Below, piece after piece: positions 27,978 through 41,657 of a stretch of 64,000 nt of DNA. The notes below the pieces were generated by a model, which did no database searches, was not told the origin of the DNA, and worked only from the letters and a program-made list of their open reading frames with translations. Each line of letters begins with the position of its first letter. Position 1 is the first letter of the stretch. Made by a program: the position numbers and the translations under genes. Origin of the DNA: Shigella phage SHFML-26. The stretch is from the sequence record KX130862, one strand, 5' to 3'.

Positions 27978-28165
27978 TATTCTTCTACATGTTGTTTACG
28001 ACCTTTCCTATCAATAAAGGTATATTCAACGAATGTTCCAATATAGTCTTTATCTACATCATGTGGACTATTAATTGGGCATTTAGTACGGCAAATGCGT
28101 TCCCATTGACGAATAATTTCCACTTTGTTTTTAGGATCAAACGGATGCGGGTAATGTACTTTCAT
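27953..28165 (-). CDS. hypothetical protein
   Basis: 70-aa ORF. Confidence 0.45.
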   Translation of the reverse strand: MKVHYPHPFDPKNKVEIIRQWERICRTKCPINSPHDVDKDYIGTFVEYTFIDRKGRKQHVEEYCLKVTWL

Positions 28166-28616
28166 AATCCACCACTATTAAATCAATATCAGGAGTAAAC
28201 ATGTCGATTAATTTAGAAACCTTATCCCAATCGCCGCCAGCAATACCGCAACCTATGCGTGGAATGTAAATTACTGGTTTAAACAAAAGGGTTTCTGCCT
28301 GTAGATTTAATTCTATCATGCAGTTTACTAAAGCACCATAATCAAGATTAGGACCCGGTTCGTATTGTGTATACAGGTTATAGCATATACCAAATCCCGT
28401 AGGACTATGTTTAAAAACAATAGACATATCGCCTAATTTATCACGAGAACCGTACTCGGTAGTGGTTTTATCTATTTCTAAAATTTTGGGATAGGCTCTT
28501 GCTAATTGACCTGCTACGCCAGAGCCCATTGTGTGGAAGCAATTGCACCCGTGCGCAATAATATTACCTTGAAGAAATAGGGCGACAATATCGCCCTTGA
28601 TATATTTTACAATCAT
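28137..28616 (-). CDS. macro-domain protein (TARG1/OARD1-like ADP-ribose processing fold)
   Basis: 159 aa; motifs GDIVAL...IAHGCNCFHTMGSGVAG and PRIGCGIAGGDW resemble ADP-ribose binding/hydrolysing macro domains. Confidence 0.65.
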   Translation of the reverse strand: MIVKYIKGDIVALFLQGNIIAHGCNCFHTMGSGVAGQLARAYPKILEIDKTTTEYGSRDKLGDMSIVFKHSPTGFGICYNLYTQYEPGPNLDYGALVNCMIELNLQAETLLFKPVIYIPRIGCGIAGGDWDKVSKLIDMFTPDIDLIVVDYESTLPASV

Positions 28617-29498: not shown

Positions 29499-29960
29499 TC
29501 ATTGAGTTTTAATTACTGCTTTAGAAGCCTTTCCTGGTAAACGACGACTGTTGATAATTGCCATCCTGCATTGAAGTGACGGGTTTTTGAACTTCTCATT
29601 AGGCTTACAAACCGTAAATCCAAGCCAAAGATTTCCATCTGTGATTTCTAAACGTCCAGGACGATATTCAACCCCATCAATAAAATCCTCGTCAATGTCA
29701 GGACGCGGAGGCATACTCAGGAATTCATTAACTTCTAAAACATGGTCTTTTATTTTATGGAATAATTCAAAAACATATGTCTCATCAATCTCCCGTTGAA
29801 TTGCACGATCAAGAAGATGTTGAGAATATTTTAGATGAAACGATGAGACTCCTGCTGCTTTTGATGCCTCACGAATCTCATTGTTAATTTGACGAAACTC
29901 CGACTCAAAATGACGACGAAGCTTATTTCGACGGATAAAAACTTCTGTATTGATAGTCAT
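29499..29960 (-). CDS. regB: RegB sequence-specific endoribonuclease
   Basis: 153 aa; MTINTEVFIRRNKLRRHFESEFRQ; early promoter (GTTTAC -35, TATAAT -10) and GAGGAG SD upstream; matches T4 RegB. Confidence 0.95.
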   Translation of the reverse strand: MTINTEVFIRRNKLRRHFESEFRQINNEIREASKAAGVSSFHLKYSQHLLDRAIQREIDETYVFELFHKIKDHVLEVNEFLSMPPRPDIDEDFIDGVEYRPGRLEITDGNLWLGFTVCKPNEKFKNPSLQCRMAIINSRRLPGKASKAVIKTQ

Positions 29961-29988
29961 GTTGTTCTCCTCTTAACTGATAGAAAAA

Positions 29989-30017
29989 TTATACCACAGT
30001 CAAGAGGAAAAGTAAAC
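29989..30017 (-). promoter_or_regulatory. T4-type early promoter of regB
   Basis: Minus strand GTTTACttttcctcttgactgtggTATAAT followed by GAGGAGAA SD and the regB ATG. Confidence 0.65.
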
Positions 30018-30019
30018 AG

Positions 30020-30298
30020 TTATTCTTTAAATCTAATCAATTTATTCATAGACTTTGAAACTTCTGCACGAACCTCATGTAGATTTTTGAGCTGTTCAAG
30101 ACGCTGCGTATAGTAAGCAATTTCATCTTCTTCGAGACAGTCCTGTGAATCTTCTTTAAGATAACGTGCATAGTCCTGGAAAGCGTTACGGACTACTTCC
30201 TGGAAATCATCAAGACTTTGAATTTTCTTAGGAGCAACAGATACACGACGAGGGGCAGTATAATACTCATAACCAAACCCTGCGCTTAATTGAGCCAT
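30020..30298 (-). CDS. hypothetical helical protein
   Basis: Track ORF 30020..30340 trimmed to the ATG ([13 protein letters not shown]...) that abuts the upstream stop. Confidence 0.5.
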
Positions 30299-30600
30299 TA
30301 GTATTTTTCCTCTGGTTGGAACACTGCACGACAAGCCCACATACTGGATTCTTTGAGTTTCGTTTTAGCAATAGTTAACTGATCGAGGCTTTCGGCGTAA
30401 TTCTTCGCGAGTTCATCATCTTCACAGCTATCAAATGCTTCCCAAAATTCATCGTATAAAGCATCAAAGATAAGTCCTAAACGAACTTCAGCGTCTTTAA
30501 TAGCATTTACTTTACCGATTTTTTCGTCGGTATGTGGCTTATAACCTTTAATATCTTCAATCATATTTGACTTCCTCACCAGTACATAAATCGTATTCAA
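30298..30600 (-). CDS. hypothetical helical protein (vs.4 position; possible Acb2-like cyclic-nucleotide sponge)
   Basis: 100-aa ORF (start may be the internal MIEDIKG); second gene after regB, the position of vs.4 in T4; assignment by synteny only. Confidence 0.45.
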
Positions 30601-30778
30601 CTAAACGAATAGGTTCATGAATGCCATATCCCTGAACAGAAATTTCTGTAGTAGGATAAATTCCATTAATATCACCCATGTTCCATGCTTCGTTAAATTG
30701 CTGTTCGCCTGAATTACTAAACCATTCGGCGAAAGCATTTAGCACATCTTCAGAACCTTCAATAATTATCTTTGCCAT
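30557..30778 (-). CDS. hypothetical acidic protein
   Basis: 73-aa ORF. Confidence 0.45.
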   Translation of the reverse strand: MAKIIIEGSEDVLNAFAEWFSNSGEQQFNEAWNMGDINGIYPTTEISVQGYGIHEPIRLVEYDLCTGEEVKYD

Positions 30779-31140
30779 TACAAACTCTCGGTAAAGGTAC
30801 GAGCGATAACATCGCGCTGCTGTTCCGGAGTCAGAGAGTTAAAGCGAACTGCATAACCGGATACACGGATGGTCAGCTGCGGATATTTTTCCGGATGCTT
30901 AACTGCATCTTCCAGAGTTTCACGACGCAGAACGTTAACGTTCAGGTGTTGACCACCTTCAATTTTAACTGTAGGCTGTTGCTCAATTTCAATTTCACGG
31001 GCATGCAAACCGTAGAAAATTTCTGGGTCTACAAAAGAGTCCTCTTTAAAGGTTTTAGAGACAATAATTCGTGCTTGAATACCATCTTCAAAATAAATAG
31101 TACCTTTATGTGTGCCTTCAAGAATTTGATATGCTTTCAT
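30778..31140 (-). CDS. autonomous glycyl-radical cofactor (GrcA/YfiD-like)
   Basis: 120 aa; C-terminal half ([61 protein letters not shown]) is essentially identical to enterobacterial GrcA, including the RVSGYAV glycyl-radical site. Confidence 0.9.
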
Positions 31141-31147
31141 ATAAACC

Positions 31148-31477
31148 TCAATTAGAAAATAAATTTATCCAAGATTGTTCTTTAATTAAAAACGGCTCAG
31201 AATCATATGCCATTAAACTTTGCGTAATTAATCCTTTAAAAGGTCCATCAATAAATTCCATGGTAAAATATGGAATTTTATTCATTAGCCGTGCATTAGG
31301 AGCAGTGCACAAAACTCTGCATCCTTTGAATACGCCTTTTTGTAATTTGTATTGCTTAGGATAAAATTCGCTTAAAATGTTATTTTTTGCCAAAATTTCA
31401 AAATGATTCACCAATTTATTTTTAATAGTTTTTGGCGAAAAATAAAGATATTCGAAAAGCTGAGTGTCTGTCATCAT
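31148..31477 (-). CDS. hypothetical protein
   Basis: Track ORF 31148..31528 trimmed to the ATG at [10 protein letters not shown] to avoid a long overlap. Confidence 0.4.
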
Positions 31478-32061
31478 TGCATTCCGATTACGAAAAACTG
31501 CGGACGAGTAATACCACCAATGCAACATTTACTATTACAGCAGTGTTGCACAGTTTCAATATGAATATCGTAAATTTTATCCATATCAGGAGATTTAACA
31601 GGCTCATCGATTATATACAAAATTCGCGAAAGAGATAAACCTCTGAACTTGCTTCCTTTATTACCGATAAAACTACGGACAGAATCAGTAAATAAGCGGA
31701 ATCGAATATCATCACTAGAATAACGAGAAAATTCTTTTTTAATGTGGCCTGCAGAAATTTTAGCGTAAGCTGAAGTATTAGAAAGAACAATAACTGTTCC
31801 ACCGTCATACAGCCAATTAGCAGCAAAGTTAGTCACAGCAGTTGATTTACCAGATTGGCGTCCACCATCTAGTCGAAGTGTACAATATTGTTTAAGCAAG
31901 TCTTCAAATGGTGGGGTATAATCGTTTTTACAAATTTCTTCTACTCTAGCATCAGAATGGTGTGTAAAAGCATTCATCAGGGATAGATAAGGACCAGTTA
32001 AAAATGTTCTCATTTTATTCTCTCTAAATTTGGGCCATTCCATGGCACATGAATTGTCCAT
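31474..32061 (-). CDS. small P-loop NTPase
   Basis: Walker A GGRQSGKST and Walker B ILYIIDEP; start ambiguous (M1, M7 or M17). Confidence 0.55.
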   Translation of the reverse strand: MDNSCAMEWPKFRENKMRTFLTGPYLSLMNAFTHHSDARVEEICKNDYTPPFEDLLKQYCTLRLDGGRQSGKSTAVTNFAANWLYDGGTVIVLSNTSAYAKISAGHIKKEFSRYSSDDIRFRLFTDSVRSFIGNKGSKFRGLSLSRILYIIDEPVKSPDMDKIYDIHIETVQHCCNSKCCIGGITRPQFFVIGMQ

Positions 32062-32166
32062 TTCTGTATTTACCTATTACCGCACTTGGGCTCGACCTTA
32101 TTACAGGTTGGCGGGAATCCCTCATAGAATCATGAGGTCCAGCTTGTTCCCATATTTCTTATTTGC

Positions 32167-32640
32167 TTATTTGAATGATTTGACGTACTGAATAGAGCCT
32201 TTGCTATTCACGAAAGCGATTTTACCATTTTTATTATACATGGTAGCATTACGCTGATAACCATAAGTTTGTTTACCAGATTGATAACCAACTAATGCAA
32301 AATTATCTTCACCCATTTTATTCTGTTTAGCGCGAATGCGTTCATGACCATGTGCCATAAGAACCTTAGCATCACCAGTTGCAATGGATCGACGAGTTTT
32401 TTCATCTTCAACTGTATTAACAAAGTCGTCAAATGAATCAAATTTAGCATGAGATTTATTATACAATTTTCCATCTACTGCATAATTATATCCCTGTACA
32501 TCCATCTCAACTTCTGTACCATCATCCAATACAGCAGTAATTTTTTGACCTTTTTTAAATTTCAAAAGATCAGTAAAAGATTCAGCAATAATTTGAGAAT
32601 TAATAGCTGCTTCAGTGATAAATTCTTGATATGTTTTCAT
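32167..32640 (-). CDS. internal protein (head-packaged) with capsid targeting sequence
   Basis: 157 aa; N-terminus MKTYQEFITEA matches the T4 internal-protein targeting sequence that is cleaved by the prohead protease. Confidence 0.7.
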   Translation of the reverse strand: MKTYQEFITEAAINSQIIAESFTDLLKFKKGQKITAVLDDGTEVEMDVQGYNYAVDGKLYNKSHAKFDSFDDFVNTVEDEKTRRSIATGDAKVLMAHGHERIRAKQNKMGEDNFALVGYQSGKQTYGYQRNATMYNKNGKIAFVNSKGSIQYVKSFK

Positions 32641-32649
32641 GGGTTTCCT

Positions 32650-33066
32650 TTAAATGTAAATATTTTTACCGTAATACTTATACCAATGTGGTTTCATTAA
32701 AATTTTTTCATCAAGTCGTTGTTGACTCAATTTAATAGCTGATTTGCATGGATTATAATCATTTTTCCATTCTACTGGAATATCGCTGATGTCAGGAACT
32801 TCAGTATCTTTTATACTGAACCTGCGTTTTAAGCATTCCGTTATAATGTCTGATTGACGCTTTCGCAAAAATTCTAACTTATCGTAAAAGAACGTAACAT
32901 GACCAGAACCTAAAATAAACTTGGAAGATATTTTAAAATCTTTAACCCGTTTACCATTTGCCACATGTTTACGAACTATACCAAAAACACGTGGCAATTC
33001 ACGGTATTCTGCGATTAAATGTTGATCAGCAAGTTCAGATACTAAAGTCAAATTAATACGAGTCAT
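32650..33066 (-). CDS. denV: endonuclease V (pyrimidine dimer DNA glycosylase)
   Basis: 138 aa; [17 protein letters not shown]...; length equals T4 DenV; early promoter upstream. Confidence 0.95.

Positions 33067-33125: not shown

Positions 33126-33656
<531 letters not shown>

Positions 33657-40972: not shown

Positions 40973-41657
<685 letters not shown>

Follow-up and report, generated by a model that had tools for sequence, protein, structure and literature searches.

The locus beside regB in T4-like phages raises the question of whether the small proteins encoded there bind the nucleotide signals of bacterial immunity. It was examined here in a 64,000-nt stretch of DNA from a T4-like phage (Tequatrovirus), referred to below as the window. 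A preliminary description of this DNA had counted genes from regB, placed an open reading frame (ORF) at 30298..30600 in the vs.4 position and proposed, by synteny only, that its product is a candidate cyclic-dinucleotide sponge of the Acb2 type; the adjoining product of 30020..30298 was described as also small and helical, and comparison with Acb2 structures was recommended. Both ORFs lie at these coordinates, on the minus strand, which that description omitted. It is considered highly probable (about 0.93) that these two adjacent early genes encode small helical sponges, Acb2 and TadIV-1, which bind immune second messengers and do not degrade them, each thereby countering an abortive-infection defense of the bacterium. 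For this pair, gene structure, gene order, identity, residue conservation and predicted fold were computed here, and oligomeric state, ligand binding and immune-evasion phenotypes come from the literature on the T4 proteins.

Over the 1.8 kb surrounding both ORFs, the window shares 98-99% identity with many Tequatrovirus genomes, the closest being those of Shigella phages ESH35 and ESh31 (99.0%). Every gene between 27.5 and 33.6 kb is carried on the minus strand; read in the sense of transcription, the genes are the e lysozyme gene (33126..33620), denV (32650..33066), one for an internal protein, vs.8, vs.7, a grcA-like vs.6 (30778..31140), vs.5 (30557..30778), vs.4 (30298..30564), vs.3 (30020..30298), regB, vs.1, vs and tk.4. 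The landmark for this order is the endoribonuclease gene regB (29499..29960), recognized by Pfam REGB_T4 (PF10715; 231 bits) and by the T4 annotation. The T4 reference annotation lists the same succession of regB, vs.3 (279 nt), vs.4 (267 nt), vs.5 and vs.6, with vs.3 and vs.4 identical in length to those of the window; the count from regB was therefore correct, and the ORF at 30298..30600 does occupy the vs.4 position. No literature was found linking vs.3 with regB, or vs.5 with vs.6. Three genes downstream of regB lies a tk.4 homolog (28137..28616, minus strand); the T4 annotation of tk.4 records an A1pp/macro-type phosphatase motif, which would place an ADP-ribose-related domain near a sponge for an ADP-ribose signal.

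The genes vs.5, vs.4 and vs.3 run into each other. The 3' end of vs.5, which lies directly upstream of vs.4, overlaps the vs.4 start (stop and start together read ATGATTGA), and the vs.4 stop overlaps the vs.3 start in TAATG. Ribosome-binding motifs can be read from the sequence within the 3' ends of the preceding genes, namely a Shine-Dalgarno GAGGAAG within vs.5 (30571..30577, minus strand), 6 nt upstream of the vs.4 ATG, and a Shine-Dalgarno-like AGAGGA within vs.4 (30308..30313, minus strand), 9 nt upstream of the vs.3 ATG. This overlapping arrangement suggests a single transcript for all three genes. In an experiment on T4, the vs.8 promoter was used to express the segment running from vs.8 to vs.3; directly upstream of vs.8 in the window, no clear promoter was seen. 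A scan for promoters and terminators returned a number of sites not above that in shuffled sequence, and the conserved site upstream of regB alone was retained. This site, in the spacer between vs.3 and regB (29988..30016, minus strand), lies directly after the vs.3 stop and consists of TTTACT, a 17-nt spacer and a TG-extended TATAAT, scoring 10/12 against the consensus plus the TG extension. The vs.3-regB spacer, promoter-like site included, is identical in T4, and the site would be expected to act as a promoter.

The identity of vs.4 as acb2 is confirmed by sequence comparison together with the predicted fold. The 88-aa protein aligns with T4 Vs.4 without gaps and over its full length, with 82 of 88 residues identical (93%) and 85 of 88 positive. 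Among solved structures it matches the protein deposited as "Vs.4" (PDB 7UQ2) at E = 1.2e-52, and the Acb2 chains of Pseudomonas phage PaMx33 weakly, over the full length (E ~0.09, ~24% identity). Pfam assigns it to Acb2_Tad1_hairpin (PF24729) with a score of 67.1 bits, the cut-off being 27. A single-sequence AF2 model (pLDDT 86.7) predicts a two-helix hairpin formed by helices 13-45 and 50-81, and a Foldseek search of the PDB with this model placed the 7UQ2 chains at ranks 1-3 (E 9e-10 to about 1e-9, TM 0.74) and PaMx33 Acb2 chains (8H2X, 8H2J) at ranks 4-6 (TM ~0.72), all later matches having E > 0.5. Residues that contact cyclic dinucleotides are also kept, namely Y8, F82 and K23, the last being aligned with K26, a residue that is essential in PaMx33 Acb2. 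What had been proposed from gene order is thus borne out by identity, domain, fold and ligand-contact residues. At least one GenBank record of vs.4 already carries the label "anti-CBASS protein 2". NCBIfam has no family for Vs.3, Vs.4 or Vs.5, and PHROGs places the small Vs proteins only in families of "unknown function".

T4 Vs.4, which the preliminary description had noted as a reported Acb2, is a published cGAMP sponge; its crystals show three cGAMP molecules per hexamer, and it restrains the activation of CBASS effectors (PMC10449767; Jenson et al. 2023). T4 Acb2 binds 3'3'-cGAMP with a Kd of ~84 nM and does not bind cA3 (PMC10312549). Its Kd for 2'3'-c-di-AMP is ~62 nM, and binding is abolished by the substitutions Y8A and F82C (PMC12657218); because it binds 2'3'-c-di-AMP, it triggers decoy-based Panoptes. 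The roles of the Tyr and Lys residues of the pocket and of T4 F82 have been described for this family (PMC12657218; PMC10312549). PaMx33 Acb2 (8H2J, 8H2X, 8IXZ; Huiting et al. 2023; Cao et al.; PMC10312549) shares family and fold with the window protein, and its Y11 and K26 correspond to Y8 and K23. It differs in its low identity and in also binding cyclic trinucleotides, through R67 and T74 (PMC10312549), whereas in the window protein D61 takes the place of R67; T68 is present. Since D61 stands at that position, and Y37, A57, L60, D61 and T64 are as in T4 Acb2 (T68, the remaining T4-type position, is retained too), the window Acb2 is by its residues of the T4 subtype and not of the trinucleotide-binding PaMx33/JBD67 subtype. 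Cyclic trinucleotides are thus probably not among its ligands, as with T4 Acb2.

By analogy with T4 Acb2, with which it shares locus, length, the pocket residues Y8, K23 and F82, the residues preventing cA3 binding and the best fold match, the window protein would bind cGAMP without degrading it and inhibit CBASS. That it is 93% identical to the protein of the hexameric 7UQ2 structure points to an interlocked homohexamer, in which three cyclic dinucleotides would be held at dimer interfaces, with Y8 and F82 predicted to stack on the ligand bases. The ligands would include 3'3'-cGAMP, other CBASS dinucleotides and 2'3'-c-di-AMP. Their sequestration would leave CBASS effectors inactive, and the same dinucleotide binding would make the phage visible to decoy-based Panoptes. 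The same strategy, in which small homo-oligomeric proteins sequester immune nucleotides, is used by Tad1, Tad2, Acb4, sequestin and lockin; none of these shows a sequence match to the window proteins, the one exception being the hairpin domain that Pfam assigns to Acb2 and Tad1 alike.

The product of vs.3 is small and helical, as had been noted, and its sequence sets it apart from Acb2. All of its 92 residues are those of T4 Vs.3, which identifies the gene as tadIV-1, a member of an unrelated sponge family. T4 vs.3 has recently been named TadIV-1 and found to be both required for resistance to type IV Thoeris and sufficient to confer it when expressed, its deletion sensitizing T4 to this system (PMC13243611; Chen et al., Nat Commun 2026). 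For N7-cADPR, T4 TadIV-1 has a KD of ~216 nM; the ligand comes off intact when the protein is denatured, and TadIV-1 is thus a non-enzymatic sponge (PMC13243611). The related protein from UPEC07 was crystallized (9WIW) as a dimer, each protomer having an antiparallel pair of helices and ~32 disordered N-terminal residues; the ligand-bound structure was modeled, not solved (PMC13243611). The N-terminal region is required for activity, short homologs of ~70 aa being inactive, and R17, R18 and K24 (T4 numbering) matter for function (PMC13243611). One branch of Tad2 also binds N7-cADPR (PMC13243611; PMC12393519), and TadIV-1 has been described as differing in structure from all the other phage sponges named above (PMC13243611). 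The mechanism of TadIV-1 is drawn from a single paper (PMC13243611).

Because the window Vs.3 is identical to T4 Vs.3, the published features of TadIV-1 apply to it. The window protein matches 9WIW at E = 2.6e-37, although the N-terminal loop of UPEC07 TadIV-1 is longer by an insertion of 9 residues that the window protein is without. With 92 aa it is of the long form (> 80 aa), and, as in T4 TadIV-1, an N-terminal loop containing R17, R18 and K24 is followed by two helices. In a single-sequence model of low confidence (pLDDT 60.6), residues 1-28 are predicted to be non-helical or disordered and helices to span 29-49 and 57-90. By analogy with the T4 protein, TadIV-1 would form a two-helix homodimer whose flexible N-terminal loop, with these three residues, captures N7-cADPR, and this capture would block the caspase-like effector of type IV Thoeris. 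Two further matches of Vs.3 were dismissed, a sub-threshold one to Pfam Tex_N and one to parvalbumin/oncomodulin structures in the PDB (E = 0.03-0.3), the latter as a chance similarity of acidic helical segments.

Several other readings of the two ORFs deserve consideration. Both are short (88 and 92 aa), and the genome is AT-rich with frequent short ORFs, so that one or both might be non-functional or open by chance. There is next to no probability of this. Hundreds of phage genomes conserve both frames. By tblastn, Vs.4 (88 aa) has homologs in 1230 phage records, many Klebsiella phages among them, and is more widespread than Vs.3 (92 aa), which has homologs in 650, chiefly Escherichia, Shigella and Yersinia phages. 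Relative to T4, most codon changes are synonymous (in vs.4, 11 are synonymous and 6 non-synonymous; in vs.3, 3 and none). The wide occurrence of homologs and this bias in codon changes exclude chance ORFs; moreover, orthologs of both have solved structures and published deletion phenotypes. Both ORFs are confirmed as real genes on the minus strand. A second uncertainty concerns the start of acb2, which had been given as yielding 88-100 aa. The mechanical ORF list begins the frame at 30298..30600 with a TTG, which would give a protein of 100 aa with a 12-residue N-terminal extension; the ATG at 30564 gives 88 aa. Translation from TTG 30600 is very unlikely. This codon is not preceded by a Shine-Dalgarno motif, whereas GAGGAAG stands before the ATG; the 88-aa form is the one annotated in T4 and related phages; the crystallized Vs.4, itself this 88-aa form, aligns from residue 1; and the extension would bury Y8, which is needed near the N-terminus. 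Judged by these features of the sequence, the true start is ATG 30564. The 92-aa protein has, for its part, been taken for a RegB-related endoribonuclease. The molecule name of 9WIW is "Endoribonuclease", many automatic GenBank annotations say the same, and several records read "endoribonuclease" or "RegB domain-containing". Such an identity is extremely improbable, since the Pfam REGB_T4 model picks out the 153-aa regB product alone and leaves out both the 92-aa and the 88-aa protein, NCBIfam gives no match to the 92-aa protein, and the paper that deposited 9WIW describes a non-enzymatic sponge from which intact N7-cADPR is recovered (PMC13243611). The names "endoribonuclease" and "RegB" on homologs of Vs.3, and sometimes of Vs.4, look like an annotation error that has spread from the adjoining regB.

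A subtler alternative accepts the window protein as an Acb2 ortholog and proposes that its six substitutions relative to T4 Acb2 (E13D, L44F, N46S, C50D, F52L and A73S) alter ligand range or affinity, for example by weakening binding of the Panoptes decoy 2'3'-c-di-AMP or by the gain or loss of other ligands, so that the T4 data would transfer incompletely. Six non-synonymous differences in 88 codons, four of them (at 44, 46, 50 and 52) clustered around the predicted hairpin turn at 46-49, speak for this idea. Ligand spectrum is also known to vary among Acb2 homologs (PMC10312549; PMC12393519), and decoy systems have been proposed to select for changed sponge specificity (PMC12393519). However, all residues with published functional evidence are unchanged, namely Y8, K23, F82 and the T4-type trinucleotide-pocket positions, and the substitutions are mostly conservative, as the 85 positives in 88 positions indicate. 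In the modeled monomer, the pocket residues near the N- and C-termini would be at one end and the turn at the other. Alleles of close similarity are also frequent, with 178 phage records at 95-99% identity; an identical protein was found by tblastn in no phage record, the closest being 98.9% identical. An altered ligand range is thus unlikely, and an Acb2 that behaves as its T4 counterpart is preferred, though the cluster around the hairpin turn may tune ligand or decoy specificity. The divergence from T4 is itself uneven, Vs.3 being 100% identical with synonymous changes only and the adjoining Acb2 carrying changes of both kinds. The pattern points either to recombination with a junction close to where the two genes meet or to Acb2 being under stronger pressure to diversify.

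The gene that precedes acb2 may also be considered. In the window, vs.5 is intact and encodes 73 aa, with a full-length match to phrog_1986 (7e-44) and homologs in 986 phage records; no meaningful match to Vs.5 was found among solved structures. In the T4 reference (NC_000866 63381..63557), a 1-nt deletion after about codon 16 leaves the annotated 58-aa Vs.5 mostly out of frame, and the gene is intact in another T4-labeled record, OL964735. Because of this second record, the T4 reference vs.5 represents a strain-specific mutation or a sequencing error. As the reference gene is frameshifted, a counter-defense role of Vs.5 could have escaped notice. It is a speculative and unlikely proposition that vs.5, acb2 and tadIV-1, with their overlapping stops and starts, form a single anti-signaling cassette in which Vs.5 is a third counter-defense protein.

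Some features farther upstream differ from T4. The 5' part of vs.8 (~32020..32130, minus strand) has an 8-nt deletion relative to T4, where the sequence is CTTATAGA, and this splits the 219-aa vs.8 frame into a 33-aa ORF (32024..32125) and an ORF of 179-195 aa ending at 31474; related phages annotate the downstream part only. The internal-protein gene (32167..32640, minus strand) encodes 157 aa, beginning with MKTYQEFITEA, the capsid-targeting leader of T4 internal proteins, and matches phrog_3155, "internal virion protein" (3e-101). It sits between denV and vs.8, an unusual position, as T4 ipII and ipIII sit between e and denV. In the window, e and denV are adjacent and ipII and ipIII are absent, and T4 ipI has no match anywhere in it.

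Beyond this locus, the window also encodes Acb1 (gene 57B; 40976..41431, minus strand), with a tblastn identity to T4 57B of 152/152. Acb1 is a cyclic-oligonucleotide phosphodiesterase and the partner of Acb2 against CBASS (PMC12657218; PMC10312549). With an acb1 product 100% identical to that of T4 in addition to acb2 and tadIV-1, the known anti-nucleotide-signaling set is the same as in T4. Acb2 and TadIV-1 have both been characterized previously; nothing in the pair is new, and no new biology follows from it. The practical value lies in annotation repair, as most GenBank records name these products "hypothetical protein" or, wrongly, "endoribonuclease". Altogether, Acb1, Acb2 and TadIV-1 predict that the phage resists type IV Thoeris and many CBASS systems, while Acb2 predicts sensitivity to decoy-based Panoptes, and these predictions are useful for forecasts of host range and for the choice of therapeutic phages.
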